Origin: Smithellaceae bacterium
Lineage (GTDB): Bacteria > Desulfobacterota > Syntrophia > Syntrophales > Smithellaceae
DNA: 64,000 bases
Direction: 5' to 3'
Assembly: GCA_963682015.1 (NCBI GenBank)
Contig: OY820932.1
Coordinates: 3,210,386 to 3,274,385 of the forward strand
Positions 23,189 through 59,220 of the stretch are shown here, in pieces. The position numbers and the translations under genes are program-made. The notes beneath the pieces were generated by a model. It searched no databases, was not told the origin of the DNA, and saw only the letters and a list, made by a program, of their open reading frames with translations. Within the stretch, counting starts at the first letter, position 1; each line of letters starts with the position of its first letter.

Positions 23189-23203
23189 GCATATTCCATG
23201 CCA
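23189..23203 (-). promoter_or_regulatory. sigma-54 (-24/-12) promoter of the ACAD-SMP30-HBD operon
   Basis: The minus strand reads TGGCAT-GGAAT-ATGC, with GG and GC at canonical spacing, about 80 nt upstream of ATG 23109. Confidence 0.75.
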
Positions 23204-23318
23204 ACTCCCGGTCACACCGGTGATCATCATATGTGTTTGAATATATGTAATTATTTTATTTTGTGGCGATTTGGAACCGGACGATTTTTGCGGCGCTGTC
23301 CGATTTATAAGTCTTTTG

Positions 23319-23335
23319 TGTCCTTAAAAGGGACA
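23319..23335. promoter_or_regulatory. Upstream activator dyad TGTCC-N7-GGACA
   Basis: TGTCCTTAAAAGGGACA sits inside the longer inverted repeat GTCTTTTGTGTCC...GGACAAAAGAC (23311-23341). Its centre is about 125 bp from the -24 GG. Confidence 0.65.
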
Positions 23336-23430
23336 AAAGACGACAACGTGTTTTGTTCTGGGACGCAGAGCCGGCAGCGTCAGGTTGAGAGGTTGCAGGT
23401 GATCAGGTAAGCGGGTACTGTTTTGAAAAT

Positions 23431-24045
23431 TTAATCAAGATATCCGGCTAGAGTGGACGGTTCGGGTACATCCCCGATGGTCTTGCCGTAATATGAAAAT
23501 TTTACGACCCTGTCCGGTTTAATGACGAATGCCGCGGGCAGTTGTGTTTCCCTGCCCTCGAATTTTTTGTGAAAATATCCCCGGCGCATCGCCCGTGCCG
23601 CAGCCATCAAACCCGCCGGGTGCAGATATTTCAACAGCCCTCCCGGCTCGACGGCATAAAGCTGAAAAATTTTCCCTTCCGGATCGCAAACGATATCGAA
23701 AGGCCAGTCTCCTTCATTCAACAAAGGCAACAGTGTTGCGGTTGAACTCTGGAGGAAAACAAAAACCCTGGCCCCTTTCTGCCTGAACAATTCGATCTCG
23801 TGTTTGAAATTTGCCATTTCCATCTGGCATACGGGGCAGCCGTGATACCTTAGAAAAACAAGGATTGCATACCGGTGCTGCGCGGTATGATAAAAATCCT
23901 GCGAGGATTTCCAGGGTGTGTCAAATCGGAAATTCGGCGCATTGTCGCCGGCTGTTATTTTTGCGAACAAAATACGGTTCCCCCTTATCACAGCGGATTT
24001 TCTCCTGAAACTATTAATGCATTGTTCTGTATTGTTCAAATACAT
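23431..24045 (-). CDS. AhpC/TSA-redoxin-like thiol-disulfide protein
   Basis: Thioredoxin-fold motif FLRYHGCPVCQME. ATG 24045 follows GGAGGAAG; the longer ORF to 24177 has no RBS. Confidence 0.7.
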   Translation of the reverse strand: MYLNNTEQCINSFRRKSAVIRGNRILFAKITAGDNAPNFRFDTPWKSSQDFYHTAQHRYAILVFLRYHGCPVCQMEMANFKHEIELFRQKGARVFVFLQSSTATLLPLLNEGDWPFDIVCDPEGKIFQLYAVEPGGLLKYLHPAGLMAAARAMRRGYFHKKFEGRETQLPAAFVIKPDRVVKFSYYGKTIGDVPEPSTLAGYLD

Positions 24046-24130
24046 TTTCTTACTTCCTCCTTCTCTATGAACGAAGGCTGTCCGGGGACAACTCACAGTG
24101 TTGTGATAGTTCAGAAGATGAGACACGCTG

Positions 24131-24147
24131 CGTCCTAAAACAGGACA
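24131..24147. promoter_or_regulatory. Upstream activator dyad (cGTCC-N7-GGACA)
   Basis: CGTCCTAAAACAGGACA, with its centre about 105 bp upstream of the -24 GG at 24244. Confidence 0.55.
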
Positions 24148-24242
24148 CGACCTGAAAAAACGCAACCTGTGTCCCATGCGGATTGTTTTTTAAATATTCA
24201 GTTTAATTAACATGTTGCAGATGGTTTCTGCAACACGGTTAA

Positions 24243-24257
24243 TGGCATGAAACATGC
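24243..24257 (+). promoter_or_regulatory. sigma-54 (-24/-12) promoter of the small exported-protein gene
   Basis: TGGCAT-GAAAC-ATGC, 36 nt before ATG 24293. Immediately preceded by the inverted repeat TGTTGCAG-N7-CTGCAACA (24213-24235). Confidence 0.7.
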
Positions 24258-24292
24258 TCTACCAATTCCAAAACTCTTGGAGGTGATGTTGT

Positions 24293-30510: not shown

Positions 30511-30532
30511 CCTTTGACCTTGAACCTGAGTT

Positions 30533-31984: not shown

Positions 31985-32175
31985 TCTTCCCTCCAGTAAG
32001 GCTAAGTTCACTTCTCCGGCCTCCACATTCCAAAGACCGCTTCATGCGCTAATCTCCCGATAATAGTGAATATTTCACTTTCTCATGACTGCTTCCGCAG
32101 CGGGGATCAAGCACTACCTGATACCAGTCATCACTTTCGGACAATAAGTGCTGACTGACTTAACGGAAGGGCATA

Positions 32176-32190
32176 GCATGTTCCATGCCG
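32176..32190 (-). promoter_or_regulatory. sigma-54 (-24/-12) promoter of the porin gene
   Basis: The minus strand reads cGGCAT-GGAAC-ATGC, about 190 nt upstream of ATG 31984. Confidence 0.6.
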
Positions 32191-33924: not shown

Positions 33925-34001
33925 TTTCCACTTTATTCAATCAAGGTTCTTGCACCGGTTGGTCACTTCACAGACCGACGGCTGCAATCCGTAAACATCC
34001 A

Positions 34002-34016
34002 GCATATAACATGCCA
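34002..34016 (-). promoter_or_regulatory. sigma-54 (-24/-12) promoter of the carboxylesterase gene
   Basis: The minus strand reads TGGCAT-GTTAT-ATGC, about 80 nt upstream of ATG 33924. Confidence 0.65.
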
Positions 34017-34075: not shown

Positions 34076-34091
34076 TGGCACCGACTTTGCA
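34076..34091 (+). promoter_or_regulatory. sigma-54 (-24/-12) promoter of the CocE/NonD hydrolase gene
   Basis: TGGCAC-CGACT-TTGCA is a perfect match to the canonical TGGCAC-N5-TTGCW, 68 nt before ATG 34159. Confidence 0.8.
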
Positions 34092-38523: not shown

Positions 38524-38538
38524 TGGCATGGATGATGC
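38524..38538 (+). promoter_or_regulatory. sigma-54 (-24/-12) promoter of the thiolase-ACAD-transport-CoA-transferase operon
   Basis: TGGCAT-GGATG-ATGC, about 90 nt before ATG 38629, divergent from the activator gene. Confidence 0.75.
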
Positions 38539-38628
38539 TCAGGAAGCATCCGAGAAACTGTTCGAGTCCTGAAAATGGATAAAGATCGACGTGAAAATGC
38601 GATCCAAAATATAAAACTAGGAGGAAAC

Positions 38629-39846: not shown

Positions 39847-39862
39847 TCCGGTAGTTTCAGAA

Positions 39863-39941: not shown

Positions 39942-40027
39942 CTTTCCATATCGTAAACAAGGTTAAACGGCATGAGGGCATGGTGAAGACCAAAGAATCC
40001 GGAGATGCACCGGCTTTAAGAGGCGGC

Positions 40028-43440: not shown

Positions 43441-43450
43441 GAAGAAACCA

Positions 43451-43487
43451 GGGTGCGGTAAAGACATTTTACCTCACCCTTTTTTTT
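43451..43487 (+). terminator. Rho-independent terminator/attenuator between the two binding-protein genes
   Basis: GGGTGCGGTAAA / TTTACCTCACCC stem (one mismatch) followed by TTTTTTTT. Confidence 0.7.
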
Positions 43488-43538
43488 GTTTATCCGTTGC
43501 CGGAGTGCGGAAGCGGAGAGAAAGGAGAGTAGAAGTCG

Positions 43539-45002: not shown

Positions 45003-45041
45003 TCCTTCGGGGGGGAATCAATGGATCGAGTCGTGAAACAT

Positions 45042-45080
45042 GCGGATGATGCAGGTGCTCTGCGGAGCCGCATCATCCGC
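45042..45080 (+). other. Intercistronic stem-loop between the binding-protein gene and livH (copy 2)
   Basis: GCGGATGATGC / GCATCATCCGC, perfect 11-bp arms with a 17-nt loop containing an inner GCTC/GAGC pair. No U-tract. Confidence 0.5.
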
Positions 45081-45109
45081 AAAACCATACAGGGAAAGGA
45101 AGTATAAGA

Positions 45110-45982
45110 ATGGATCCTACCGTATCGATGTACATATCCCAGGGGATTCACGGGATAGCGTACGGGATGATATTGTTTTTGATTGCATCGGGATTGAACA
45201 TTATCTTTGGGATGATGGGGATTTTGAACATGGCCCACGCGGTGTTTTTCATGCTGGCGGCGTACATTTGTTACGCGGTGGTGGGGCTTACCGGGAGCTT
45301 CTGGGCGGGATTGCTGGTGGCTCCGTTGGTGACGGCGATGTTGGGCATCGTAATGGAGCGGGTGTTTTTGCGGACGGCGCACAAAGTGGGGCACTTTGGA
45401 GAACTGATTTTGACGATGGGCATCGGGAGCGTGATCGTGGCGGCCATCAAGAAGATCTGGGGGACGGAGAGCATGCCTCTGCAGGTACCGGATTTACTTC
45501 AGGGAATGGTGAACATTTTCGGGATATCCTACCCGATATACCGCCTGTTCGTGATCGGCCTGGCGCTGGTCATCCTGGTATTCATGATGCTGCTTTTGTA
45601 CCGGACGCGCCTGGGAAAGATCGTACGTGCGGCGGTGTCGGACCGGGACATGGTGAACGCTTTGGGGATCAACATCAATCTCGTGTTCATGTTCGTATTC
45701 GGAGTCGGCACATGGATGGCGGGAATCGCGGGTGTGGCCATTGCGCCGATTCTGACGGTGTTTCCGGGGCTGTCGGATCAGGTGGGGATGGACGCATTCA
45801 TCGTGGTGGTGACGGGCGGATTCGGGAGCCTGGCGGGGGCGTTTATCGTCTCGCTGATCTTCGGGCTTTTGAGCTCCTACGGCGTCCAGTTCGTGTCCCA
45901 GTTTGCGCCGGTTTTGATGGTGGTGTTCATGGCCATCGTCCTGGCGTTTCGCCCTAACGGACTATTTGGAGTGAAGGAATGA
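45110..45982 (+). CDS. livH: ABC transporter permease, LivH/HAAT family (identical to 11909-12781)
   Basis: Identical translation to copy 1. GGGAAAGGAAG RBS lies outside the repeat. Confidence 0.9.
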   Translation: MDPTVSMYISQGIHGIAYGMILFLIASGLNIIFGMMGILNMAHAVFFMLAAYICYAVVGLTGSFWAGLLVAPLVTAMLGIVMERVFLRTAHKVGHFGELILTMGIGSVIVAAIKKIWGTESMPLQVPDLLQGMVNIFGISYPIYRLFVIGLALVILVFMMLLLYRTRLGKIVRAAVSDRDMVNALGININLVFMFVFGVGTWMAGIAGVAIAPILTVFPGLSDQVGMDAFIVVVTGGFGSLAGAFIVSLIFGLLSSYGVQFVSQFAPVLMVVFMAIVLAFRPNGLFGVKE

Positions 45983-46971
45983 CGACCATGAACAATAAAG
46001 CAAAAAACATAATTTTGTGGCTGATACTGCTGGCCTTTCTGGCCTTTTTCCCCAAACTGTTCGGAGTGTACTACACGAACATGGTGGTAACCTTCGCGAT
46101 CTTCTCCGTATATGCTTTGTCGTTGAACATGCTGATGGGGTACACGGGACTGTTGAGTTTCGGACACGCCATGTTTTTCGGGTTTGGCGGCTACGGCACG
46201 GCGCTGGCATTGAAGCATATTGAAGGGATCGGGGTCTTTCCGGCCATCGGCATCGGCGTCCTGGCGGCGGCGGTCCTGGCCTTGATTTTGTGCCCCCTGG
46301 TGGTCCGGGTGAGCGGGACGGCATTCGCGATGCTGCATCTGGCGTTTGGACAACTGTTATACGTTCTGGCCCTGAAGTTATATCCGATTACGGGCGGAGA
46401 AGACGGGATCGCGAACTTTCCGGTACCGGGACTCTTTACCGAGAGCCTGAAGAGCTCCCCGGAACACATGTATTACCTGGCCATGATTGTCCTGGGATTC
46501 TGCGTCTGGCTGATGTGGTTTGTCACCAAGACCCCGTTTGGACAGATCCAGGTGGGGATCCGGGACAACGCCAAGAGAATCGACTACCTGGGCTACAAAG
46601 TGCCGCAGTCGAAAGCGGTGGTTTATACCCTGTCGGCGGTGTTTGCCGGCGTGGCGGGCTCCTTCTACGGCCTGTTCCACAACCTGGTATCGGCGGACGG
46701 CTCGCTGGGGATCGGGATGTCCTTTTCACCGATCGTCTGCATCATGATCGGAGGCGTGGGAAGCTTTTTCGGTCCGATGATGGGGACGGCGGTGTTTCAG
46801 CTCATCGACGAGTTGATCCTGCGGTACACGGAGAGCACGGAGCTGGTGATGGGCATCATCCTGGTTGCGGTGGTCATGTTTATGCCGATGGGCTTTACGG
46901 GATTGTTTAAGATGGGATGGTTGAAGGTAAAAGCCCGGTTTGCCCCGAAAGCGAAGGAGAAGGCGTCATGA
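45979..46971 (+). CDS. livM: ABC transporter permease, LivM/HAAT family (identical to 12778-13770)
   Basis: Identical translation to copy 1. Confidence 0.9.
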   Translation: MTTMNNKAKNIILWLILLAFLAFFPKLFGVYYTNMVVTFAIFSVYALSLNMLMGYTGLLSFGHAMFFGFGGYGTALALKHIEGIGVFPAIGIGVLAAAVLALILCPLVVRVSGTAFAMLHLAFGQLLYVLALKLYPITGGEDGIANFPVPGLFTESLKSSPEHMYYLAMIVLGFCVWLMWFVTKTPFGQIQVGIRDNAKRIDYLGYKVPQSKAVVYTLSAVFAGVAGSFYGLFHNLVSADGSLGIGMSFSPIVCIMIGGVGSFFGPMMGTAVFQLIDELILRYTESTELVMGIILVAVVMFMPMGFTGLFKMGWLKVKARFAPKAKEKAS

Positions 46972-47717
46972 ATAATATACTGGAGACAAAAGATTTAAAG
47001 CACAGTTTCGGTCCGTTGAGAGTGCTGTTCGGGGTGGACCTGCAGATTGCGGAAGGGGAGCGACACGCGGTGATCGGCCCCAACGGCGCGGGGAAGACGA
47101 CCTTGTTCAACACCATTACAGGGACATACCACCCGACCCACGGCAAGGTATTCTTCAAGGGGAATGACATTACGGGATTTCCGCCGCACAAGCTGGCGAG
47201 AATCGGGATCGGGCGTTCCTTTCAGATTACCAGTACCTTTACGTACCTGACGGCGTTTCAGAACATCCGCCTGGCGATTTTGTCGAAAGACGGGGTCCGG
47301 TTCAATCTGTTTCGGAAAGTGGACCGGATGGAGAAGCTGACGGAAGAGACCAACGCGATGCTCAAAAGGATCAACTTGTATGAAGACCGCAACGTGATGG
47401 CCTGCAACCTGTCGTACGGGAAGTCCAGAGCGCTGGAGATCAGCATGGCTCTGGCGACGGACCCGGAGCTGGTTCTGCTGGATGAGTTTGCGGCGGGGAT
47501 GTCGAAGGAAGAGACGGCCGACGCGGTAGCCCTGATCCGGAATCTGACCCAGGGGAAGACCGTGGTGCTCATCGAGCACGATATGGACGTGGTGTTCAAC
47601 CTGGCGGACCGGATCACCGTATTACATTACGGGAAGATCCTGGCGACGGGGAAGCCGGAAGAGATCCGGAACAATCAGGCTGTGAAAGACGCCTATCTGG
47701 GCGATCTGGAAGTATAA
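46968..47717 (+). CDS. livG: ABC transporter ATP-binding protein, LivG-like (identical to 13767-14516)
   Basis: Identical translation to copy 1. Confidence 0.9.
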   Translation: MNNILETKDLKHSFGPLRVLFGVDLQIAEGERHAVIGPNGAGKTTLFNTITGTYHPTHGKVFFKGNDITGFPPHKLARIGIGRSFQITSTFTYLTAFQNIRLAILSKDGVRFNLFRKVDRMEKLTEETNAMLKRINLYEDRNVMACNLSYGKSRALEISMALATDPELVLLDEFAAGMSKEETADAVALIRNLTQGKTVVLIEHDMDVVFNLADRITVLHYGKILATGKPEEIRNNQAVKDAYLGDLEV

Positions 47718-47784
47718 AGGATAAGATGAAACGGCTCTTTTTGCGAAGCCGTAGAAACCCTCTCAAAAATATGAGGAGACGCAT

Positions 47785-48501
47785 ATGTTACTGGAAGTAA
47801 AGAATCTAAACACTCACTATGGACCGAGCCACGTATTGCAGGGAATCAACCTGAGTATTGCGGACGGGGAGCTGGTGGCTCTTCTGGGAAGAAACGGGAT
47901 GGGGAAGAGCACGACGTTGAAGAGCATCATGGGGATGGTGAAACCCACCTCCGGTTCCGTCATGTTTCAGGGGCAGGAGATTGCGGGTCTTCCTCCGTAT
48001 AAGGTGGCCAGGGCAGGGATCGGCTATGTTCCCGAAGAGAGAAGAATCTTTCCGGAGCTGACCGTTTTGGACAATCTGCTTCTGGGGATTAAAGACGGGA
48101 AGGTCCGGAACCCGAACGATCCGAATACGTGGACGATCGAGCGGATTTTCCATCACTTTCCGAAGCTGGCGGAGCGGACGAATCAGGCGGGCGGACGACT
48201 CTCCGGCGGGGAGCAGCAGATGCTGTCGATCGGCCGGTCGCTGATGGGGAATCCGAAGTTATTGCTGGTGGATGAGCCGTCGGAGGGATTATCGCCGATC
48301 ATGGTGCAGGAAGTGCGCAACGTTCTGGCGGAGATCAACAAGGCCGGAGTGTCGGTGCTGCTGGTGGAGCATAACCTGAAGGTGGCTCTGTCCCTGGCGA
48401 ACCGGGTCTACCTGATGTCCAAGGCCTGCATCGGCTGCGAGGCCACCGCCACCGAAGTCAAAGACAACCATGAGCTCCGCGCTCAATATCTCGAAGCGTA
48501 A
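47785..48501 (+). CDS. livF: ABC transporter ATP-binding protein, LivF-like (identical protein to 14584-15300)
   Basis: Identical translation. One synonymous difference (GAG at 48439-48441 versus GAA at 15238-15240). Confidence 0.9.
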   Translation: MLLEVKNLNTHYGPSHVLQGINLSIADGELVALLGRNGMGKSTTLKSIMGMVKPTSGSVMFQGQEIAGLPPYKVARAGIGYVPEERRIFPELTVLDNLLLGIKDGKVRNPNDPNTWTIERIFHHFPKLAERTNQAGGRLSGGEQQMLSIGRSLMGNPKLLLVDEPSEGLSPIMVQEVRNVLAEINKAGVSVLLVEHNLKVALSLANRVYLMSKACIGCEATATEVKDNHELRAQYLEA

Positions 48502-48554
48502 CAGGAGAGACGGAGTCAGGGCGGCAGTCCGTTTGAGTAAAGGAGAAGAGATCA

Positions 48555-49601
48555 ATGAGCAACAATGGAGATAAACGGATGAGCGCGAGAGAGGCCGTGG
48601 AACGGTTTGTCCACGACGGAGACACGCTCATCGTAGGAAACTATACCATCAGCATCGCGTTTGGCCTGATCTATGAAGTGGCCAGACAACGGAAGAAAGG
48701 ACTGACGTTGTGCTCGCAGTCGGGACATCTGAGCGACGAGATTCTGATGGCCGCCGGATGCGTCGATCGTCTCGTGACGGCCTATGTGATGAATGCGGGA
48801 ACGATGGAAGGGGATTATCCGGTTGGTCGCGCCCTGAAGCAGGGTAAGCTGCAAATCGAAGATTATACAAACTTTCAATACAATGCGCGTCTGGTTGCCG
48901 GAATGCACGGGTACAGCTTCATGCAGGTGCTGGAGGGCATCCTGCATACGGATGTCTATAAAAAGCGGGGGTTCATGGGGGAGAATAAATTCAAGGTCAT
49001 CTCCTGTCCGTTTACCGGGAAAGACACGGTGCTTGTGCCTGCTTTGAATCCGGACGTTTGTATTGTCCATGTCCAGCGGGCCGACAAATTCGGCAACGCA
49101 CAGTACTGGGGGGCGATGGGCAGCGTCCAGGCAGCGGCGCTGGCCAGCAAAAAGATCATCGTTTCCTGTGAAGAAATCGTGGAACATGATGTCATTGCTT
49201 CCAGCCCGCATTTTACGATCATTCCTGGTTTCCGGGTCGATGCCGTGGTGGAGATGCCCTGGGGAGCGCATCCCGGAGAAGTGGTCGGCCACTACAATAC
49301 CGATAAGGTAGCCATGGCGGTGATGGGCGCGGGATTGCTTACGGAAGAAGGCAGCAAGGCATGGCTTGATGAGTGGGTTTATAAATGTCCGGATCAGAAA
49401 GCCTACATGAAACAATATATATCGATTTTCGGAATGGACGTCATCAACGGCATCAAGGCGCGGTCTTACTATTCCGCGCCGGCGAATTACGGTTCGGCGT
49501 TTACGACGGTCTGGGATGAAAACCGTCTGGAGCGGACGATGGGAGTGACGCTTGCGGAACTGGAACAGATCATGAAGGAGAAGGGGGTGCTGTATGAGTA
49601 A
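48555..49601 (+). CDS. Family-I CoA-transferase, subunit A (GctA-like), paralogue 2
   Basis: 348 aa, co-linear with 15402-16448 without gaps by eye, with many substitutions. Confidence 0.8.
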   Translation: MSNNGDKRMSAREAVERFVHDGDTLIVGNYTISIAFGLIYEVARQRKKGLTLCSQSGHLSDEILMAAGCVDRLVTAYVMNAGTMEGDYPVGRALKQGKLQIEDYTNFQYNARLVAGMHGYSFMQVLEGILHTDVYKKRGFMGENKFKVISCPFTGKDTVLVPALNPDVCIVHVQRADKFGNAQYWGAMGSVQAAALASKKIIVSCEEIVEHDVIASSPHFTIIPGFRVDAVVEMPWGAHPGEVVGHYNTDKVAMAVMGAGLLTEEGSKAWLDEWVYKCPDQKAYMKQYISIFGMDVINGIKARSYYSAPANYGSAFTTVWDENRLERTMGVTLAELEQIMKEKGVLYE

Positions 49602-50439
49602 GCCCTATACATTAAATGAGCTGCTGATCATTGCCGTGGCCCGGGAAATCCACGATTACGAAAACGTGGTCCTGGGTGTGGGCATTCCCATGACCTCGGG
49701 CGCGCTGGCAAAGAACATCTTCGCGCCGCATGCGAACCTGATCATGGAATCGGGAATCATCGATTTCACACCCACCGTGCCGATGAACAACGTGGCGGAC
49801 TGCATGTCCTGCCGGGGATTTTCCTGCGCGACGGATCTGTTTTCCACCTTTACGATGACCTACCGGGGATTTGTAGATGTGTGCTTCCTGGGAGTGGCCC
49901 AGGTGGACAAATACGGAAACCTGAACACGACCGTCATCGGGGACTACGATCACCCCAGCGTTCGGCTGCCGGGTTCGGGCGGGGCGGCGGATTTCATATC
50001 GTATGCCAAAAGGACGATTCTGACCATGCGGGGAGGCGAATTTGTGGAAAAACTGCACTACATGACCTCTCCGGGGTATCTGGACGGAGGAGACAGCCGG
50101 GAGAAAACCGGGCATTTTACGCCGGGGAGCGGGCCGACCAGGCTCATCAGCACACAGGGGATATTTGAATTCGATCCGGTGACGAAAGAGATGTTTCTTT
50201 CCCGGATTCATCCGGGGGTAAAACTGGAAGCGGTGAAAAAGAAGATTCCGTGGGATTTGAAGGTATCTCCCGACTTAACGCAGACGGAGCGTCCGAAGGA
50301 TGAAGAAATCGATTTCATCCGGAGGTATTTTCCGACGGAATCGGTCGGGAAGAACCTGATGTGGGAAATCGCCACGACCAGTTTCCAGAAGCGGTTTAAC
50401 GTGGCGAGTCCCGCCGTGACAACCGAAGAAAAGAAATAA
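49594..50439 (+). CDS. Family-I CoA-transferase, subunit B (GctB-like), paralogue 2
   Basis: 281 aa. LIMESGIIDF retains the ESG glutamate. Has a C-terminal tail not present in paralogue 1. Confidence 0.8.
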   Translation: MSKPYTLNELLIIAVAREIHDYENVVLGVGIPMTSGALAKNIFAPHANLIMESGIIDFTPTVPMNNVADCMSCRGFSCATDLFSTFTMTYRGFVDVCFLGVAQVDKYGNLNTTVIGDYDHPSVRLPGSGGAADFISYAKRTILTMRGGEFVEKLHYMTSPGYLDGGDSREKTGHFTPGSGPTRLISTQGIFEFDPVTKEMFLSRIHPGVKLEAVKKKIPWDLKVSPDLTQTERPKDEEIDFIRRYFPTESVGKNLMWEIATTSFQKRFNVASPAVTTEEKK

Positions 50440-50515
50440 ACGGGCGCCGGACGGATAGTCGGCGGCTGTGATAAAACAATGAACAAATTTGAAAACCATA
50501 CAGGAGGATGTACGC

Positions 50516-51265
50516 ATGAGATTAAAAGATAAAGTGGCAATTGTAACGGGATCAGGCCAGGGAATCGGCGAAGGGATCGTTCTTCGTTTCGTGGAAGAAG
50601 GCGCGAAGGTGATCGTGAATGATGTGGTGGAAGCCAATGCAAAAGCCGTCGTCGAGAAAGTGAAGGCGATGGGCGGCCAGGCGATCGCCGTTTGCGGCAG
50701 CGTGGGCGACCGCGCGGTGGTCCAGAACATGGTGGATACGGCCGTAAAGGAATTCGGCACGCTGGATATTATCGTCAACAACGCCGGCATCACCCGCGAC
50801 GCCATGCTGCACAAGATGGAAGACAAGCAGTGGGATGCGGTGATTGCCGTCAATTTAACCGGCGTGTATTACGGCATTCAGTGCGCGGGCCGGGTCATGC
50901 GGGACCGCGGCTACGGGAAGATCATCAATATTTCCTCGACGAGCGCGCTGGGCAACCCGGGTCAGCTCAATTACGCCGCATCGAAAGCCGGCGTCATCGG
51001 CATGACCAAGACGGCGGCCAAGGAGCTGGGGCCGAAAAACATCAACGTCAACGCCATCGCACCGGGGATGATCTGGACGGACATGATGAAGAACATGCCG
51101 GCCAATGTGCTTGCGCAAATTGATGCGACCCTGCCGTTTGTGGTTCCGCTGAACCGGAAAGGCTCGCCCCGGGACATCGCCAATCTGGCGCTTTTCCTGG
51201 CTTGCGAGGAAAGTCAGTTTATCACCGGGCAGATCATCTTCTGCGACGGTGGAATGAAAATGTAA
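50516..51265 (+). CDS. Short-chain dehydrogenase/reductase (FabG-like) 1 of 3
   Basis: TGSGQGIG, NNAG and YAASKAG. AGGAGGA RBS before ATG 50516. Confidence 0.85.
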   Translation: MRLKDKVAIVTGSGQGIGEGIVLRFVEEGAKVIVNDVVEANAKAVVEKVKAMGGQAIAVCGSVGDRAVVQNMVDTAVKEFGTLDIIVNNAGITRDAMLHKMEDKQWDAVIAVNLTGVYYGIQCAGRVMRDRGYGKIINISSTSALGNPGQLNYAASKAGVIGMTKTAAKELGPKNINVNAIAPGMIWTDMMKNMPANVLAQIDATLPFVVPLNRKGSPRDIANLALFLACEESQFITGQIIFCDGGMKM

Positions 51266-51287
51266 CTCAACAAGGAAGGAAAATAAA

Positions 51288-52076
51288 ATGAAACTGCAAG
51301 ATCTATACAGCTTGAAAGGTAAAGTTGCTTTGGTAACGGGTGGCGGCCGCGGAATCGGGAAATTCATTTCCACGGGGCTGGCCGAGGCAGGGGCCAATCT
51401 GGTTATCGCTTCCAGAAAAATGAAAAACCTGGAAGATACGGCAAAAGAACTGGAAGCCCAGTTTGGCGTCAATGTGCTGCCGGTGGCCGCGAACATGGAA
51501 AAACCGGAAGAGATTGACGGTGTGGTCAAGGCCGCCATGGATCGTTTCGGGCGGATCGATGTTCTGGTGAACAACGCCGGGTATACCTGGGGCGCTCCGA
51601 CGCTGTCGTATCCGCTGGAACGCTGGGATCAGGTGTTCAACATTAATGTCCGCGGCGTCTGGATTCTGACCCAGAAAGTGGCGAATATCATGAAAAATCA
51701 GGGCGGCGGTAACATTATTAACGTGTCGTCAACCATGTCTTTCCGCGGGTCGCTGGAAGTTGCGCATCCCGCCGTGGCCTACAATTCATCCAAGGCGGCC
51801 ATCAACCTGCTGACGATGAATCTGGCCGTGAAGCTTGCGCCTTACAAGATTCGCGTCAACGCGATTGCACCGGGCTACTTCAAGACGGACATGATGGCCC
51901 ATATGGAAAAACCGGAAATGAAGGACATGCTGGAATTGAGTTTGAATTTTATCCCCCTGCACCGCGGCGGAGACATGGACGACATGAAAGGCGTGGCTGT
52001 ATTTCTGGCCTCCGAGGCGTCGGCCTTCATTACGGGAGCGATTCTGCTGGTCGACGGCGGGTCGCTGGCACAATAA
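51288..52076 (+). CDS. Short-chain dehydrogenase/reductase 2 of 3
   Basis: TGGGRGIG, NNAG and YNSSKAA. Confidence 0.85.
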   Translation: MKLQDLYSLKGKVALVTGGGRGIGKFISTGLAEAGANLVIASRKMKNLEDTAKELEAQFGVNVLPVAANMEKPEEIDGVVKAAMDRFGRIDVLVNNAGYTWGAPTLSYPLERWDQVFNINVRGVWILTQKVANIMKNQGGGNIINVSSTMSFRGSLEVAHPAVAYNSSKAAINLLTMNLAVKLAPYKIRVNAIAPGYFKTDMMAHMEKPEMKDMLELSLNFIPLHRGGDMDDMKGVAVFLASEASAFITGAILLVDGGSLAQ

Positions 52077-52093
52077 CAAGGCAGGAGTCCTGA

Positions 52094-52900
52094 ATGAAAA
52101 ATTTTTCACATTTTAATCTTGAAGACAAAGTGGCGCTGATTACAGGAGCCAGCCGGGGCATCGGTCGGTCCGCCGCGCTGGCGTTTGCCAGAGCCGGGGC
52201 ATCCGTGGCGCTTGTCAGTCGCAAGCAGGAAGACCTGGACAAAGTAGCCGAGGAAATCCGGGCCGAAGGCGGCAAGGCGCTGCCGGTGGCGGCGCATGTG
52301 GGTAAAATAGACGACATCCGCAGACTGGTGGACAGAGTGGTTGCCGAACTCGGACAGATTAACATTCTGGTGAACAATGCCGGTGGAGTACCTGCCACGG
52401 CTCTATGCCTGGATGTTGAGGAACGGCTGTGGGATACGGTAACAAATCTGAATCTCAAGGGCGTGTATTTTTTAAGCCAGGCGGCGGCCCGTGTCATGAA
52501 GGAACAGGGCGGCGGCAAGATCATCAATGTCGCTTCCACCAGCGCCTTCAAACCCGAGTATAAAAATGGCATCTACTCCATGTCCAAGGCGGCCGTTGTC
52601 ATGATGACCAAGTCCATGGCGCTGGAGCTTGCGGAGTTTAATATCCGGGTCAATGCGATTGCGCCGGGACCGATCATGACGAAACTCTTATCCAATACAT
52701 GGTCCGGTCTGCCGGAAGAATACTCCAAAATGGTGCAGGATTACCTGGCCAATACCACGCCGGTGGGAAGGATCGGCGATCCCAAAGAGATCGACGGCGC
52801 CATGCTGTACCTGGCATCCGATGCGTCAAGCTATACCACCGGCCAGACGATCGTCATCGACGGAGGGATGCTCTTGGGTAACAAGGTCGAGAGAAGATAG
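52094..52900 (+). CDS. Short-chain dehydrogenase/reductase 3 of 3
   Basis: TGASRGIG, NNAG and YSMSKAA. Confidence 0.85.
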   Translation: MKNFSHFNLEDKVALITGASRGIGRSAALAFARAGASVALVSRKQEDLDKVAEEIRAEGGKALPVAAHVGKIDDIRRLVDRVVAELGQINILVNNAGGVPATALCLDVEERLWDTVTNLNLKGVYFLSQAAARVMKEQGGGKIINVASTSAFKPEYKNGIYSMSKAAVVMMTKSMALELAEFNIRVNAIAPGPIMTKLLSNTWSGLPEEYSKMVQDYLANTTPVGRIGDPKEIDGAMLYLASDASSYTTGQTIVIDGGMLLGNKVERR

Positions 52901-52970
52901 ACAAAAACCGCCCTGTGCAGGGGCGGCATTCCTGAAAGAAATTCAGGTTAATCAAAAAGGAGAATCATCC

Positions 52971-53798
52971 ATGTCAGAAGAAAAAAAATTTAACGATGTC
53001 GTGATCGAAAAAGTTGCCGACGGAAATTACGCGGTGGTTTCCATAAACCGGCCTGATAAGCTCAACTCCCTTTCCACCGACACCCTCCGGGAGATTTCAG
53101 AAGCTCTGGACATGCTGGCGGTTGATTCCGCTGTCCGTTGCGTGGTGCTGCGCGGAACCAGGAACTTCACCAAGAAGCCGGCATTCTCCGCGGGAGCGGA
53201 TCTGGCGGCGCCCATGCCCGGCGGCCTGAATTACACGGTTCCCGTGCACAACGATCTTTTCATGCAGATCAAGCATAAATATTATGATCTGATTGAAGCT
53301 TTCCCCAAACCGCTCATCGCGGCGGTGGACGGTTATGCATTTGGCGGCGGGTGCGAGCTGACGCTGGTATGCGATCTGGTGATCGCATCCAAACGCAGCG
53401 AGTTCGGATTCCCCGAAATCAAACGCGGTATTTTCCCGGCCAACGGCGGTACACAGAGAATGGTACAGCACATCGGCATGGCCAGAACCAAACTGATGAT
53501 TTATTCGGCCGCTAATTTTTCAGCGGAAAAGATGATGGAATGGGGATATGTGGCCGATGTGGTCGAAGTGGACAAATTCGAGGAAGAGGTCCACAAACTT
53601 GCTTCGATGATCGGCAAAGGCCCTACCACGTCCTACTATGTCATCAAGAAATGCATGAATTACGGAACGCAGGTTCCCCGGAATGTCGGCCTGGTCTTTG
53701 AACAGATGGCCTTCGGCCTCAATTCCACTTCGCCGGATGTCGTGGAAGGCGTCACAGCTTTTTTCAGCAAAAAGGCGCCCGACTTCAAGGGTTTTTAG
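52971..53798 (+). CDS. Enoyl-CoA hydratase/isomerase (crotonase) family protein
   Basis: ATG 52971 (MSEEKKFNDVVIEKV) follows AAGGAGAA. Crotonase motifs FSAGADL and AVDGYAFGGGCELTLVCD. Confidence 0.85.
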   Translation: MSEEKKFNDVVIEKVADGNYAVVSINRPDKLNSLSTDTLREISEALDMLAVDSAVRCVVLRGTRNFTKKPAFSAGADLAAPMPGGLNYTVPVHNDLFMQIKHKYYDLIEAFPKPLIAAVDGYAFGGGCELTLVCDLVIASKRSEFGFPEIKRGIFPANGGTQRMVQHIGMARTKLMIYSAANFSAEKMMEWGYVADVVEVDKFEEEVHKLASMIGKGPTTSYYVIKKCMNYGTQVPRNVGLVFEQMAFGLNSTSPDVVEGVTAFFSKKAPDFKGF

Positions 53799-53942
53799 TC
53801 CGGGGGTTCCCGCAAAGCCGAAAAGGGCGGGAGACGGGCTGAGATAAAAACACGGAATCATCCCGGGCAGTTTTTGAAATTGTCCGGGCTTTTCTTCTCT
53901 CAAAAAAAGGTTTGGCGGGAATGAAAAGTCACGAACGAGGTT

Positions 53943-55364
53943 ATGATGAAGCATTTCAGAAAAGAACAGGATTCCCTGGGTGTACGCGAAGTTCCCTCCA
54001 ACCGTTATTACGGTATACAAACCTTGCGGGCTCTGGAAAATTTTGACCTTACGGGTATTCCCGTCGGCAGATATCCGCAAATGGTCGTATCGCTGGCGAT
54101 GGTAAAGAAAGCCGCGGCCCTGACCAATCAGGATCTGGATTTATTGCCTGCGGAAATTGCCGCCGCGATTGTCCAGGCCTGTGACGAGATCATCGCAGGC
54201 AAACTGCATGAAGAGTTTGTTGTGGATGTCATCCAGGGCGGAGCCGGAACCTCCACCAACATGAATGCCAATGAGGTCATCGCCAACCGTGCGCTGGAAA
54301 TCCTGGGGCTGGAAAAGGGTCGTTACGACATGCTCCACCCTCTAAACCACGTTAATTTATCGCAGTCCACCAATGACGTGTATCCCACGTCCCTGCGCAT
54401 TACGCTCAGCCGTATGATGGACGATCTCATGCGTGAGATGGAAGTTCTGCATGCCGCTTTCCGGGAAAAATCTCTGGAGTTTGCGGATGTCATCAAAATC
54501 GGCCGTACACAGCTCCAGGATGCCGTGCCCATCACACTGGGACTGGAATTCGGCGCCTGGGCCACGATGGTGGGTGAAGACATCTGCAGAGTCGGCGAAG
54601 CACAGTCCCTCATCCGGGAAATCAATCTGGGCGCAACGGCCGTGGGCACGGGACTGAATTCACATCCGGATTACGCCAAAACCGTTACCTCCAGACTCCG
54701 TGATCTGAGCGGAGTTCCCGTGGTCATGTCCGTCAATCTGCTGGAAGCCACTCAGGACGCAGGCGCGTATGTGCAGCTCTCCGGCGTGCTGAAAAGGATT
54801 GCGGTGAAGCTGTCCAAGATATGCAACGATCTGCGTTTGCTTTCATCCGGTCCGCGGGCCGGATTCAATGAAATCAACCTTCCGCCCATGGCTCCCGGAT
54901 CGACCATCATGCCGGGTAAAGTCAATCCGATTATTCCGGAAGTTGTCAATCAGATCGCCTTTGAAGTGATGGGGGCCGATCTGACCGTCTCCGTGGCGGC
55001 GGAAGCCGGACAGCTGGAACTCAATGCCATGGAGCCGATCATTGCTTACAAACTGTTTACGTCCCTTGACCTGCTGGGGCGCGCCTGCCGTGTGCTGGCC
55101 CAGCGATGTGTAAAAGGGATAACCGCAAACCGGGAAGTCTGTCGCCGCATGGTGGAAAACAGTGCAAGTCTTGCGACCGCTCTGAATCCTGTTTTGGGAT
55201 ACGAAAAATCTGCCGCAATTGCACATGAGGCCATTGCCGCGGGAAAAACCGTTTATCAGATTGTTCTCCAGAACGGGTACTTGAGCAAAGCTGACCTGGA
55301 TGAACTCCTTTCCCCGGAAAACATGACCCGTCCCGGATCGATCTCCAGAAAGGCCGGCTTATAA
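53943..55364 (+). CDS. aspA: Aspartate ammonia-lyase (aspartase/fumarase class II superfamily, AspA-like)
   Basis: Shows EQDSLGVREVPSNRYYGIQTLRALENF, QGGAGTSTNMNANEV and the signature GSTIMPGKVNPIIPEVVNQ. The N-terminal and NP..PEV blocks resemble AspA more than FumC. Confidence 0.75.
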   Translation: MMKHFRKEQDSLGVREVPSNRYYGIQTLRALENFDLTGIPVGRYPQMVVSLAMVKKAAALTNQDLDLLPAEIAAAIVQACDEIIAGKLHEEFVVDVIQGGAGTSTNMNANEVIANRALEILGLEKGRYDMLHPLNHVNLSQSTNDVYPTSLRITLSRMMDDLMREMEVLHAAFREKSLEFADVIKIGRTQLQDAVPITLGLEFGAWATMVGEDICRVGEAQSLIREINLGATAVGTGLNSHPDYAKTVTSRLRDLSGVPVVMSVNLLEATQDAGAYVQLSGVLKRIAVKLSKICNDLRLLSSGPRAGFNEINLPPMAPGSTIMPGKVNPIIPEVVNQIAFEVMGADLTVSVAAEAGQLELNAMEPIIAYKLFTSLDLLGRACRVLAQRCVKGITANREVCRRMVENSASLATALNPVLGYEKSAAIAHEAIAAGKTVYQIVLQNGYLSKADLDELLSPENMTRPGSISRKAGL

Positions 55365-56399: not shown

Positions 56400-56413
56400 A
56401 ACCTATCCTTTAC

Positions 56414-57844
56414 TTAGAGATCGTTCAGATCGGGTTTTTCTTTTGTCGGTTTCCCATCCGGTCCGACATAAACTCTTCCCCATCCCGTGAAAATTGCCGC
56501 AAACATTACGATGAACAGCATCCAGGCGTAAAATACCCAGGGCGTGATGGAAAGAGGGCTCAAAAACGGCACTCCGGCAAAGTCCTGACTGGCCTGCTTG
56601 GATAGCCCGCTGGCAAACAAAACACCCACGGACCATGGAACGGAGTAAACAAGGGTGCAGGCAAAGGTGTCCACAATCACGGCTCTTCTGTAGGGGTGAA
56701 GTTTGAATTTCTCGCCCAGCGGTTTGGAAAAAGACAAGCCGACGGCCAGGATCGCCGGCGCGTTAATGCTCATCAGCGCGGAAAAAATCAATTCCAGAAA
56801 CGCCGAGGCAAGCTCAAAACCGACGATGGATTTTCTGACAACTTTGCGGCCGAAAGCGACCAGGGCGTCCCCGCCGCCGCCGTCCAGCATGACCTGTATG
56901 CCGGCGGAAAGAAGAATCACCAGAATCGACAGATCCGCCATCCAGCCGGAAACCCCTTTCAATATAGCGCCGTCCGTCACGGAAAAAATTCCCGAAAATG
57001 TATTCAGTCCCGTGATCAGGGCGAAAACAATGCTTGATGCAATTCCCAGGATCAGCGCAAAGATGATGTTCGTGGTTTTAATCGCAGAGTAGATGGTAAT
57101 CGCGGCAGGAATAAACATGACCAGCCCCACGGGATTCATGTGTTTGGCGAGCGTCTCATAGGGAACGGCGGCCGTGGATCCTTTAAAGAAGTAGCCGAGA
57201 ATGAGCATCAGCACAATGGCAAGTCCCGCCGACGTCAGACCAAATCTTGCTCTCGTCTTGACAACGCCTCCAACATCGGTGTCCTGACTGGTTGCCGATG
57301 CGATGGTCGTATCGGATATCGCCGCCATATTGTCCCCGAATGCTCCGCCGCCGATAATCGCGCCGGCCAGGAGCAACGGATGCGCTCCCAGCAGCACACC
57401 CGCCGGATAAAGAACCGCCATGCCGGCCGCAATGGTTCCGAATCCGGTTCCGGCTGCCGTTCCAAATGTGGCGCAGGCGATGAAGGTAACCACGGCAAAC
57501 ATCGTGCCGCTCGCGCCGGTCTTCATGGCCAGCCACAACAGACCGTCCACCATTCCCGATGATCTCATGACGGATGCAAAGATGCCCGCAAAAATCCAAG
57601 CGGCCACCGGCATCAGTGCGACTTTCGCGGACATCCCCTTGATGATGGTCAGCCCGTACAGTTCTTTGTCCCTGGCCAGGAAAAAAGTAATGATAATACC
57701 CGTCAGAATGCCGATCCACATGGCCTGGATCGTCACTTCTTTCATGGTGAAAGCGATGACCACCGCAACGATGACGAATGTGATTATCGGAACAAAAGAT
57801 GAAAAAGCTGATCCGTATAAGGTGAGTTTCTTTTCCTGCTCCAT
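56414..57844 (-). CDS. NhaC-family (Na+/H+ antiporter-like) polytopic transporter
   Basis: 476 aa, about 12 TM helices. Family resemblance only; substrate unknown. Confidence 0.6.
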   Translation of the reverse strand: MEQEKKLTLYGSAFSSFVPIITFVIVAVVIAFTMKEVTIQAMWIGILTGIIITFFLARDKELYGLTIIKGMSAKVALMPVAAWIFAGIFASVMRSSGMVDGLLWLAMKTGASGTMFAVVTFIACATFGTAAGTGFGTIAAGMAVLYPAGVLLGAHPLLLAGAIIGGGAFGDNMAAISDTTIASATSQDTDVGGVVKTRARFGLTSAGLAIVLMLILGYFFKGSTAAVPYETLAKHMNPVGLVMFIPAAITIYSAIKTTNIIFALILGIASSIVFALITGLNTFSGIFSVTDGAILKGVSGWMADLSILVILLSAGIQVMLDGGGGDALVAFGRKVVRKSIVGFELASAFLELIFSALMSINAPAILAVGLSFSKPLGEKFKLHPYRRAVIVDTFACTLVYSVPWSVGVLFASGLSKQASQDFAGVPFLSPLSITPWVFYAWMLFIVMFAAIFTGWGRVYVGPDGKPTKEKPDLNDL

Positions 57845-57941
57845 TGAAAAACCTCCAGTGTTTCTACTGAATCTCTAGCTGGCAATCCATGCATCCGGAT
57901 TTTCTGCCTGCGCAATCTATCCACGCGGTTACCGGTTATCC

Positions 57942-58649
57942 TCAACGGGCTTCCTCAACGGCTCGTTCCGCCAGCAGGGCAAGAGGGTCGATGACCGGGA
58001 CGGACAGATCGCCGTCTGCCAGTACCAGCGGTATCTCCGTGCAGCCAGCGATGATTGCCTGCGCACCGCGGCGGATCAAGGTTTCAGCCGCTTCACGGAT
58101 AAGTGTTTTTGAGGCGGCGGAAGGTCCGTCGGCCTTGACGCTGTATATCGCTTTCATAATGTTTGATATCTGTATATCCTTGGCGGGAGTAATCAGCTCC
58201 AAGCTTGCGGCGTCGCACGCCTCATTGAAAAGACCGGATTGGATCGTACCGGAGGTTGCCAGTAAACCGATTTTCCGGATGCCGGGATACTGAACGACCG
58301 CATGATTAATGGTTTCCTTTACAACGTGCAGGATGGGCGTCGATATCTGTTCCTGCAGTCTTGAATGGAAAAAGTGGGCGGTTACACAGGGAATAACGAT
58401 AAAATCAACGTGCGCCGTTAAAAGAAGCTTCGCGCTTTCCACCATCATCGGCAGGGGATCCGTGCCGTTTTCCAGGATGGCCCTGGTTCTGTCGGGAATT
58501 TTGGGGTTGTTCACAATAACGATGCGGGGATGATCCTGATCGTCTGCAACCTTTGCCGCTTTTACGATTTTATCGAAAAGGTTGACAGTCGCTGCGGGGC
58601 CCATCCCACCAAGAATTCCGATTGTTTTCCTGTAGTGCATTATCGACAA
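57942..58649 (-). CDS. Aspartate racemase (Asp/Glu/hydantoin racemase family)
   Basis: Shows IGILGGMGPAATVNLF plus two catalytic Cys contexts, IVIPCVTAHFF and IAGCTEIPLV. Confidence 0.8.
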   Translation of the reverse strand: MSIMHYRKTIGILGGMGPAATVNLFDKIVKAAKVADDQDHPRIVIVNNPKIPDRTRAILENGTDPLPMMVESAKLLLTAHVDFIVIPCVTAHFFHSRLQEQISTPILHVVKETINHAVVQYPGIRKIGLLATSGTIQSGLFNEACDAASLELITPAKDIQISNIMKAIYSVKADGPSAASKTLIREAAETLIRRGAQAIIAGCTEIPLVLADGDLSVPVIDPLALLAERAVEEAR

Positions 58650-59040
58650 TTCGCTTGTGCCGTATCTTGTTGCTGAAATTTTGTCTCTTTTTGAGCCACA
58701 GTATACGGCATGCCCCCTTCATTGTTTAATCCGACCCTCTGTTTCATTTTCTGTGCCAGCAGGCAGGCCGGGGGAAAATGATGGTATTTAGTTGATTGTA
58801 TTTGGTATTTTATTAATAGTTGTTTTTTTATGAGATTAAAGTCCGATTGTTTGTGTCCTTTTTTGGTACACTGCTCGTTTGGCAAATGCGTTTTTTGTGC
58901 AAAGCAATGTCTTATGTTGGGACATATAACAACGGAAAAATATCTCTCCGTATGCCGTTCCCCTTCATATAGCGGATGCTGCGACGGATAAAAATTCATA
59001 TGTTATCTCATCAGCCTGTGCTCTGATGTGTCAGATCGCG

Positions 59041-59057
59041 TGTCCCATTATTGAACA
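59041..59057. promoter_or_regulatory. Activator dyad (TGTCC-N7-GaACA) upstream of the D-aminoacylase operon
   Basis: TGTCCCATTATTGAACA, with its centre about 158 bp from the -24 GG at 59207. Weaker sites lie at 58908-58924 (TGTCt-TATGTTG-GGACA) and 58854-58870 (TGTCC-TTTTTTG-GtACA). Confidence 0.5.
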
Positions 59058-59205
59058 CTTCAAGTATCGAAAGCCTTTTCCAGTCAGTAAAAATTTTTGA
59101 ATTATGGAGAACCCGATTGTCTGATGAATTGTAAATGAATAAAGATATTACTGAAATCGATCTACGAAAAATCCTGCAACGGAATCAGTGAATGGAACAC
59201 TTTTC

Positions 59206-59220
59206 TGGCATAAAAAGTGC
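59206..59220 (+). promoter_or_regulatory. sigma-54 (-24/-12) promoter of the D-aminoacylase operon
   Basis: TGGCAT-AAAAA-GTGC, 64 nt before ATG 59284. Confidence 0.65.

Follow-up and report, generated by a model that had tools for sequence, protein, structure and literature searches.

The question raised by this locus is whether genes for a porin-like protein, an exported protein, hydrolases, an ATP-binding cassette (ABC) transporter and CoA-dependent oxidation, dispersed over one stretch of DNA, form a single sigma-54 regulon. The stretch is a 64-kb window of a Smithellaceae bacterium (64,000 nucleotides of contig OY820932.1; all positions below are window positions), in which seven -24/-12 promoters, five of them with an upstream TGTCC-N7-GGACA dyad, and one enhancer-binding protein gene had been read earlier (the original prediction). 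All evidence for the regulon is computational. On this evidence the window very probably holds a catabolic regulon that depends on sigma-54, belongs to a Smithellaceae-type bacterium and is governed by the window's single enhancer-binding protein (gene 36298-38331); the reading is supported by all computational tests, namely enrichment, conservation, geometry and family-level precedent. The seven promoter strings were all verified in the window sequence at the predicted positions and on the predicted strands:

38524..38539 (+): thiolase promoter, TGGCATGGATGATGCT, score 8/8, 36 nt upstream of the thiolase start
23188..23203 (-): acyl-CoA dehydrogenase promoter, TGGCATGGAATATGCG, 79 nt upstream of gene 21304-23109
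24243..24258 (+): exported-protein promoter, TGGCATGAAACATGCT, score 8/8, 35 nt upstream of gene 24293-24793
32175..32190 (-): porin-like gene promoter, CGGCATGGAACATGCT, 191 nt upstream of gene 30533-31984
34001..34016 (-): esterase promoter, TGGCATGTTATATGCT, score 8/8, 77 nt upstream of gene 32359-33924
34076..34091 (+): S15-hydrolase promoter, TGGCACCGACTTTGCA, upstream of gene 34144/34159-36168
59206..59221 (+): amidohydrolase promoter, TGGCATAAAAAGTGCC, -12 element GTGC, 63 nt upstream of gene 59284-60969

Genes were mapped from open reading frames and Pfam matches, with an intergenic share of 6,311 bp (9.9% of the window), and each GG-N10-GC in the window was graded on eight flanking consensus positions. 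The GG-N10-GC spacing is present in all seven listed promoters, which are intergenic, directed at a gene and conserved at orthologous genes. A score of at least 7/8 was reached by six sites, where block shuffles gave 1.16 and, over 200 runs, never more than 4; each of the six is intergenic and aimed at a start codon 35-191 nt downstream (36-190 nt in the original prediction). Exact matches to TGGCAT-N5-ATGC, for which a chance expectation of well under one had been claimed, number five against 0.32 expected, a count reached in 0 of 100 shuffles; four coincide with listed promoters. The remaining one, at 33822-33836 (+), was rejected as a chance match within the esterase gene, the opposite strand of which carries conserved GIPYA codons. 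The local promoter consensus is TGGCAT(G)-N4-ATGC(T); since the -12 element reads ATGC instead of TTGC, the promoter core is nearly palindromic.

All six listed dyads are present as well, two of them (23319 and 32337) exactly and the other four (24131, 38361, 38391 and 59041) with one mismatch each. Two further intergenic dyads, 58854 and 58908, were absent from the original prediction. Grouped by promoter, with distances from the dyad centre to the -24 GG, the sites are as follows:

38361-38377, 38391-38407 and the weaker 38413-38429 (CGTCTTATAATCGTACA): thiolase promoter, 156.5, 126.5 and 104.5 bp
23319-23335 (exact), 23349-23365 (weak) and 23297-23313 (one good half): acyl-CoA dehydrogenase promoter, 125.5, 155.5 and 103.5 bp
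24131..24147 (CGTCCTAAAACAGGACA): exported-protein promoter, 105.5 bp
32337-32353 (exact) and 32283-32299 (weaker): porin-like gene promoter, 156.5 and 102.5 bp
59041..59057 (TGTCCCATTATTGAACA): amidohydrolase promoter, 158.5 bp
58854-58870 and 58908-58924: candidate racemase promoter, 105.5 and 159.5 bp (291.5 and 345.5 bp from the amidohydrolase promoter)

The two exact TGTCC-N7-GGACA sites compare with 0.04 expected in the window. With at most one mismatch 14 dyad sites were found, eight of which lie in the approximately 10% (6.3 kb) of intergenic DNA, and all eight intergenic dyads share their spacer with a sigma-54 promoter. The wider consensus is RTGTCC-N7(AT-rich)-GGACAY. A symmetrised weight matrix, the training set of which included the window sites, yielded at 16 bits or more eight matches in the window, one across unrelated bacterial loci totalling 1.95 Mb, and 0.07 on average in shuffles. 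Weaker intergenic dyads by the same matrix are 32283 (13.7 bits), 23349 (12.7 bits) and 38413 (10.8 bits), to which a good half-site at 23297 is added; all of these are conserved. The one-mismatch dyads at 4009 and 7582 are coding and attributed to chance; they lie inside an ordinary deoxy-sugar/polysaccharide cluster (2789-8982) with genes for an epimerase, a C-methyltransferase, a 2,3-dehydratase, a DegT aminotransferase and a GT2 protein. The element at 24161-24176 (-) (TGGGACACAGGTTGCG) was considered as a promoter of the neighboring AhpC-type gene and rejected (score 5/8; reverse of a dyad half-site; the 24131 dyad would be downstream).

That the dyads are instead RNA or DNA hairpins (terminators, attenuators or elements like repetitive extragenic palindromes), with promoter proximity incidental, is very improbable. 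The 32337 dyad does lie in a 39-bp palindrome that begins at the stop codon of the esterase gene and, on the + strand, was flagged as terminator-like, and the 38361 dyad was flagged as terminator-like too; however, no gene ends at 32326 on the flagged strand, the arms are 5-6 bp and not G+C-rich, and most sites have no T-run. Terminator-like matches are no commoner than in shuffles, which leaves the terminator reading unsupported, and it is the arm sequence rather than the pairing that is conserved and recurs at every site. The Rfam scan of the window gave no RNA family match, and the related locus L001 is without the long arms yet has the 17-bp dyad. The palindrome itself (32326-32364, 97% self-complementary) overlaps the esterase stop codon and widens the 32337 dyad to 14-bp arms around the 7-bp spacer, of which L001 retains the 17-bp dyad only.

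Read as activator sites, the dyads show a regular geometry. The distances of the original prediction are correct (125.5, 105.5, 156.5, 156.5/126.5 and 158.5 bp), and the helical phasing claimed for them holds, with a Rayleigh p of approximately 0.008 at 10.5 bp for its six distances and of 0.001 for all eleven window sites; a Monte Carlo test in which the best-fitting period could range from 10 to 11 bp gave 0.008 and 0.002, respectively. The recurrent layout consists of up to three dyads (usually two or three per promoter) at approximately 104, 126 and 156 bp from the -24 GG, and over at least 20 promoter copies the distance classes are 102.5-106.5, 125.5-130.5 and 148.5-160.5 bp. Given centre-to-centre spacings of 22 and 30 bp, all dyads lie on the same face of the helix. 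In its core TGT-N11-ACA, which occurs one to three times at 102-160 bp and in a few cases at 182-346 bp, the element belongs to the TGT-N10-12-ACA class of upstream sites.

Between the dyads and the promoter lies a conserved block of the TAT(T/A)ATCAA type. A scan for sites of the integration host factor (IHF) with WATCAANNNNTTR, a degenerate pattern searched with at most one mismatch in AT-rich DNA, located an IHF-like site in a single orientation 33.5-36.5 bp from the GG at 11 of 22 promoters (four promoter families) and at the candidate racemase promoter. The WATCAA-type element approximately 35 bp from the GG is thus IHF-like, which points to IHF, short of proof. In the window it was recorded at the following positions:

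38485-38497: thiolase promoter, TTTCAATATATTA
24205-24217: exported-protein promoter
32217-32229: porin-like gene promoter, AATCAACAACATA
58785-58797: candidate racemase promoter, centred 34.5 bp from the GG

Conservation was assessed in the orthologous spacers of four to five related genomes; the related loci L161-L168 were found via the exported 166-aa protein and the amidohydrolase, L001 and L081 via the activator. Promoter, dyads and spacing are kept in these spacers, and the DNA between them diverges. The thiolase promoter is kept as TGGCACGGATGATGCT in L001, L081 and L163, and all three of its dyads are kept in L001 (104.5/126.5/156.5 bp) and L163 (103.5/125.5/155.5 bp, the first value read directly off the sequence), with divergence of the adjoining AT-rich DNA. 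The acyl-CoA dehydrogenase promoter has an identical 16-mer in L161 and L162 and close variants in L163 and L164; the alignment shows its three-dyad block in four genomes, with distances of 125.5-128.5 and 155.5-158.5 bp in four loci. Likewise kept in four loci (L161-L164) is the exported-protein promoter, with dyads at 102.5-105.5 bp (four loci) and approximately 156 bp (three loci). The porin promoter reads GGGCATAAAATGTGCT in L001, where both dyads are kept (106.5/151.5 bp), and CGGCACAGAACATGCT in L163, where one is kept (160.5 bp). The amidohydrolase promoter is found as TGGCATGGAAAGTGCC ahead of the orthologous amidohydrolase in three other genomes, with dyads at 155.5-158.5 and 202.5-209.5 bp (L165, L167 and L168); these three loci are an independent check because they are outside the matrix training set.

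Chance combined with the shared ancestry of close genomes is a most improbable source of this pattern. The genomes are few and related, and their intergenic alignments are 63-75% identical overall; however, the observed counts are far above shuffle expectations, the architecture is repeated at six non-homologous spacers of one genome, and the distances were held although the spacer DNA between conserved promoter and dyads had diverged, with insertions and deletions.

The gene arrangement in the relatives is in line with one regulon. In L163 the dispersed units of the window are contiguous, in the order thiolase (reverse strand), activator, esterase, porin-like gene, acyl-CoA dehydrogenase, 3-hydroxyacyl-CoA dehydrogenase, exported protein, amidohydrolase, AAT and a beta-lactamase-family gene. 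L166, for its part, has the amidohydrolase fused behind CoA-transferase, short-chain dehydrogenase/reductase (SDR) and hydratase genes. In L162 two divergent promoters share one dyad pair, at 125.5/155.5 bp from either, and a pair is likewise shared in L165. The extra divergent sigma-54 promoter of L162 (5055-5070, TGGCATGAATGATGCT), with its counterpart in L161 (5959-5974, TGGCATGGATGATGCT), drives a gene for a 727-aa ADP-forming acyl-CoA synthetase and shares the acyl-CoA dehydrogenase dyads; the gene is not in the window. Because in the relatives the dehydrogenase operon lies next to the exported-protein gene and runs in the same direction, the window has a local inversion together with an insertion. 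An AhpC/TSA-family gene (23431-24045) lies between the dyads of these two promoters, and at that place in the window only.

The protein to which the dyads are assigned is encoded by a single gene:

36298..38331 (-): enhancer-binding protein, 677 aa, with a GAF/MimR_N-like domain, PAS, AAA+ sigma-54 domain and a C-terminal helix-turn-helix (HTH) of the Fis type

Its start at 38331 was set by alignment with L001. Pfam matches are PF00158 (E=8.4e-67), AAA_lid_14, PAS and GAF, and the translation contains the Walker-type motif GKSGTGKD and FLDEI. At its C-terminus the protein can be aligned to AdhR-type homologues over the HTH (ARSSLYRKLK versus SRNTLYxKMK); Pfam HTH_8 was not reported for the window activator at E <=0.001, the related activator gene in L164 (fragmented there) bears PF02954, and the L163 orthologue has a precomputed PF26965 MimR_N match. 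With GAF/MimR_N-like and PAS domains and no receiver domain, the protein is probably triggered by a small molecule, not by phosphorylation. That it is the only enhancer-binding protein encoded in the window, as originally predicted, agrees with a six-frame scan showing one GAFTGA-like loop only. The earlier label 'AcoR-like' applies to the domain architecture and to nothing beyond it. The protein scores below all NCBIfam equivalog cut-offs (DhaR 390/551, PrdR 390/795 and NifA 290/529 bits; also NtrC, PrpR and AtoC); equivalog names were rejected for the amidohydrolases, too, for the same reason. Two dyads had been placed at the 5' end of the activator gene, where 38361 and 38391 are indeed present (one mismatch each), together with the third, weaker one at 38413. 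As these thiolase-promoter dyads lie 30-98 bp upstream of the activator start codon, autoregulation is likely; a simple scan for a sigma-70 promoter of the activator gene detected none.

An orthologue of 82% identity is present in the Smithellaceae metagenome-assembled genome OY821638.1 (L001; same sequence in L081), and genome and metagenome scans for close orthologues returned one other species only. Other full-length relatives are from Firmicutes (35-39% identity over residues 56-674). Their genes are followed by a sigma-54 promoter and a gene for an iron-type alcohol dehydrogenase or an aldehyde:ferredoxin oxidoreductase, which identifies them as AdhR/AorR-type regulators. Between activator gene and promoter these loci have 17-bp TGTnn-N7-nnACA dyads in pairs or triplets (TGTCCTAAAAATGAGCA, TGTTC-N7-GAACA, TGTCATAAAAGCGAACA); the exact TGTCC-N7-GGACA is absent from them, with a one-mismatch site by the activator gene in L083 and distant stray matches in four others. 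Nie et al. reported the TGT-N10-12-ACA class for 15 clostridial activator groups, multiple sites being common and the usual distance 100-250 bp (PMC6615313), and Yang et al. found by electrophoretic mobility shift assay and mutagenesis that AdhR binds three sites, all of which are needed (PMC7017808). In view of the Firmicute dyads and the published class, the window dyad appears as the local version of a family-wide site, and a three-site array able to template a hexamer has, by analogy, a precedent.

It is improbable, if less so than a hairpin origin, that the promoters are real and the dyads are operators of some other regulator encoded elsewhere (a repressor or global regulator) rather than upstream sites of this activator. 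The TGT-N11-ACA class is short and generic, the dyads were assigned to the activator from the sequence alone, and two sigma-54 promoters of the cluster work without any dyad. However, the fixed distances from the -24 GG are enhancer territory and not those of an operator overlapping the promoter; two or three dyad copies stand at the 5' end of the activator gene in three genomes; distant homologues of the activator have the same 17-bp type of dyad beside their own genes, and AdhR binds such sites (PMC6615313, PMC7017808); and no further DNA-binding regulator gene was seen among the window genes scanned.

Among known systems, the activator resembles AdhR and AorR of Clostridium, sigma-54 activators of adhA and aor (PMC7017808, PMC6615313), in GAF-PAS-AAA+-HTH order, identity (35-39%), similar recognition helices and 17-bp TGTnn-N7-nnACA dyads in two or three copies approximately 100-250 bp from a -24/-12 promoter. 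In contrast to AdhR and AorR, which lie directly upstream of a single adhA or aor target, the window activator is divergent from its first target and has at least six predicted units over 40 kb. No adjacent adhA or aor gene is its sole target, the targets being thiolase, beta-oxidation, hydrolase and porin genes; its dyad arms are TGTCC/GGACA and its loop is GAFTGS, and it is a homologue and not an orthologue. AcoR, DhaR, PrdR and MimR-type proteins share the N-terminal GAF-like domain and PAS; no acoABCL, dha or prd genes are near the window activator. For clostridial AcoR a different upstream-site motif was reported, and NifA was cited as an analogue for TGT...ACA sites (PMC6615313).

The window differs from NifA systems in its spacer (N11, not N10), in the score at the NifA equivalog (290 versus 529 bits) and in its catabolic targets. 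NifA is a GAF-containing activator with TGT-N10-ACA sites approximately 100-150 bp upstream, dependent on the helix face, and with an IHF bend at nif promoters. At glnAp2 (NtrC) and Pu (XylR), adjacent dimer sites nucleate the AAA+ oligomer; looping at Pu is assisted by IHF, and distance and orientation are tolerated. Use of sites in either orientation is comparable to the dyads common to divergent promoter pairs described above, whereas NtrC belongs to the phosphorylated response regulators, the effector domain of XylR is of the V4R type, and their dyad sequences are unrelated. Sigma-54 regulons have been reconstructed comparatively in Desulfovibrio. Reconstructions for Clostridiales (PMC6615313) and Geobacter (PMC2725144) likewise combine activator, site motif, promoter and cross-genome conservation; the gene content of the window regulon is different from all of these. 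The literature search found, in the library covered, no sigma-54 regulon reconstruction for Smithellaceae or Syntrophales and no paper on Smithella or Syntrophus sigma-54 regulons.

The original prediction had tied a porin, an exported protein, periplasmic amidohydrolases, ABC uptake and CoA-dependent oxidation into a single stimulon, which stands for the dyad-bearing units; the esterase and S15-hydrolase promoters are not tied to this activator. The former is kept in L001 and L163, and the counterpart of the latter in L001 drives an extra 933-aa gene. Searches by matrix, for repeats, for IHF-like sites and for shared upstream 9-mers in three genomes found no dyad, inverted repeat, IHF-like site or common 9-mer at either promoter, so that at least one further activator or activation mode must exist: these two promoters either have another activator or are served by the local one acting from the porin dyads approximately 1.6 kb away. 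There is about an even chance that two or more sigma-54 regulons overlap here, the dyad promoters being local and the esterase and S15 promoters, possibly with the amidohydrolase or racemase pair, being under a second activator encoded outside the window. Apart from the conservation of these two promoters and the lack of motifs upstream of them, the different flavour of the S15 -12 element (TTGCA) speaks for such an arrangement, as does the S15 gene of L165, which lies behind a MalT-type regulator and has no sigma-54 promoter. On the other side, the L163 esterase promoter begins 45 bp past the activator stop codon, suggesting linkage, and the porin dyads, directly after the esterase gene in three genomes, could act at approximately 1.6 kb, a distance at which NtrC-type enhancers have been shown to work. 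A second regulon is compatible with control of the other six units by the window activator.

The sixth of these units is headed by the candidate promoter to which the unlisted dyads belong:

58743..58758 (-): eighth candidate promoter, TGGCACAGAAAATGAA, -12 doublet GA, approximately 103 nt upstream of the racemase start

In the alignment it is kept as TGGCATGGAAAATGT in L165 and L168, where the -12 doublet is GT and the dyads are at 105.5/159.5 bp (L165) and 104.5/148.5 bp (L168). With GA (GT in the relatives) in place of GC, the element falls outside the strict definition of the -24/-12 class; its conservation and geometry argue for use as a promoter. Beyond the original prediction, the analysis adds a spacing rule (104/126/156), the IHF-like site 35 bp from the GG, the dyads common to divergent promoters and this conserved promoter with a defective -12 element.

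In the proposed mechanism, activator dimers would bind the 17-19-bp RTGTCC-N7(AT-rich)-GGACAY dyads via the C-terminal HTH, and, following the established mechanism of the class, three adjacent dimers would template an AAA+ hexamer, bending at the IHF-like site would carry it to the closed complex of the sigma-54 holoenzyme, and ATP hydrolysis would then open the promoter. Several observations weigh against assigning all this to the window activator. The matrix counts in the window rest on sites also used for training, the orthologous sites are non-independent, and only about five related genomes were compared. Two strong, conserved promoters (esterase and S15) have no dyad, and the eighth promoter is without the near-invariant -12 C. 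The amidohydrolase promoter is a weak consensus match (score only 5/8) with GG and GC doublets on both strands, so that the core leaves its orientation unfixed; the reverse orientation was set aside as the less likely reading because the dyads would then fall downstream, the 155-158 bp spacing fitting the + strand only. The sigma-54-contact loop is GAFTGS in the window (residue ~445, position 36996) and GSFTGS in L001 and L163, compared with the canonical GAFTGA; F and T are retained, and GAFTGA variants other than this one were reported as tolerated (PMC6615313). No rpoN gene is among the genes of the 64-kb window. Operon extents, finally, were derived from strand and spacing, and in the long thiolase operon the hairpins after the thiolase and second solute-binding protein genes and a terminator-like site at 53862-53888, ahead of the aspartase gene, could halt transcription.

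With these points taken into account, the transcription units predicted to be under the activator are those headed by thiolase, by acyl-CoA dehydrogenase (with lactonase and 3-hydroxyacyl-CoA dehydrogenase), by the PsbP-fold exported protein, by the porin-like protein and by the amidohydrolases (with an Ntn-type hydrolase); the aspartate-type racemase, NhaC and S58 peptidase probably belong to it as well. The units, with the two that lack dyads given last, are:

38575..55364 (+): same-strand gene run with thiolase, long acyl-CoA dehydrogenase, two solute-binding proteins, LivHMGF-type ABC transporter, two-subunit CoA-transferase, three SDRs, enoyl-CoA hydratase and aspartate ammonia-lyase (Pfam, NCBIfam)
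21304-23109 (-): acyl-CoA dehydrogenase, then SGL lactonase (20219-21265) and 3-hydroxyacyl-CoA dehydrogenase (19036-20187)
24293-24793 (+): exported 166-aa protein
30533-31984 (-): porin-like protein
59284-60969 and 61057-62742 (+): two D-aminoacylase-like amidohydrolases with twin-arginine (TAT) signal, then AAT/Ntn-type hydrolase (62772-63683)
57942-58640 (-): racemase, with NhaC (56414-57844) and peptidase S58 (55359-56399)
32359-33924 (-): type-B carboxylesterase
34144/34159-36168 (+): S15/CocE-type lipoprotein hydrolase

Some homologues of the porin-like protein carry Porin_4. The exported protein, behind the strongest promoter, matched only 11 homologues in a set of 5.8 billion proteins, each of them from the same lineage, and its predicted fold is PsbP/DcrB/LpqN-like (predicted local distance difference test score, pLDDT, 74; template modeling (TM) score approximately 0.56-0.59). 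The aspartate ammonia-lyase scores above the AspA cut-off. Further members in the relatives are beta-lactamase-family hydrolases, an M20 peptidase, a dCache chemoreceptor and a GntP permease. The racemase (57942-58640) is above the NCBIfam cut-off of the cysteate racemase CuyB equivalog (240 versus 190 bits) and that of the general Asp-racemase subfamily; because its operon partner in relatives is the aspartase, an aspartate substrate seems likelier than cysteate.

The gene content fits a pathway, offered here as a guess, in which ester- or amide-linked conjugates would undergo hydrolysis in the periplasm, their acid part would be taken up, activated through the CoA-transferase and degraded by beta-oxidation, and a (D-)aspartate-type part would pass through racemase and aspartase; the actual substrate is not readable from the sequence. 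A tentative, rather doubtful extension is that the locus represents an undescribed, lineage-restricted pathway of syntrophic Smithellaceae for conjugates from which a (D-)aspartate-type amino acid and an organic acid are released, in which one ligand-sensing activator works with a rigid geometry of three dimers plus a bend at six or more promoters, including the one lacking the -12 C (ATGA/ATGT). If active, the 58743 promoter would be a natural -12-defective sigma-54 promoter that is still enhancer-dependent. The analysis would link eight transcription units, including a protein family with 11 known members, in one testable response, and would give a regulon-level annotation for uncultured anaerobic syntrophs whose genes are mostly 'hypothetical' or generic hydrolases. 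The dyad matrix and the fixed spacing rule can be reused to find further members in Smithellaceae genomes, and the rigid geometry with a dyad pair common to divergent promoters makes a clear natural example of enhancer layout. The control itself is of an ordinary bacterial kind and leaves the understanding of sigma-54 control unchanged.

The window contains a second, paralogous transporter cluster at 11.9-18.8 kb, upstream of which a scan gave neither a sigma-54 promoter nor a dyad. The two clusters share a 3.4-kb direct duplication (11894-15301 and 45094-48502, 99.85% identity) covering livHMGF-type permease and ATPase genes, while the flanking CoA-transferase and binding-protein genes have 68-73% identity only; near-identical copies with divergent flanks indicate a recent gene conversion or possibly an assembly artefact. 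A PAS-rich hybrid histidine kinase (25851-29991; L161 1-3238, L162 1-2697) lies between or beside regulon units in three genomes and is adjoined by a GGDEF protein in the window; neither a sigma-54 promoter nor a dyad belongs to it, and it may feed the same response.

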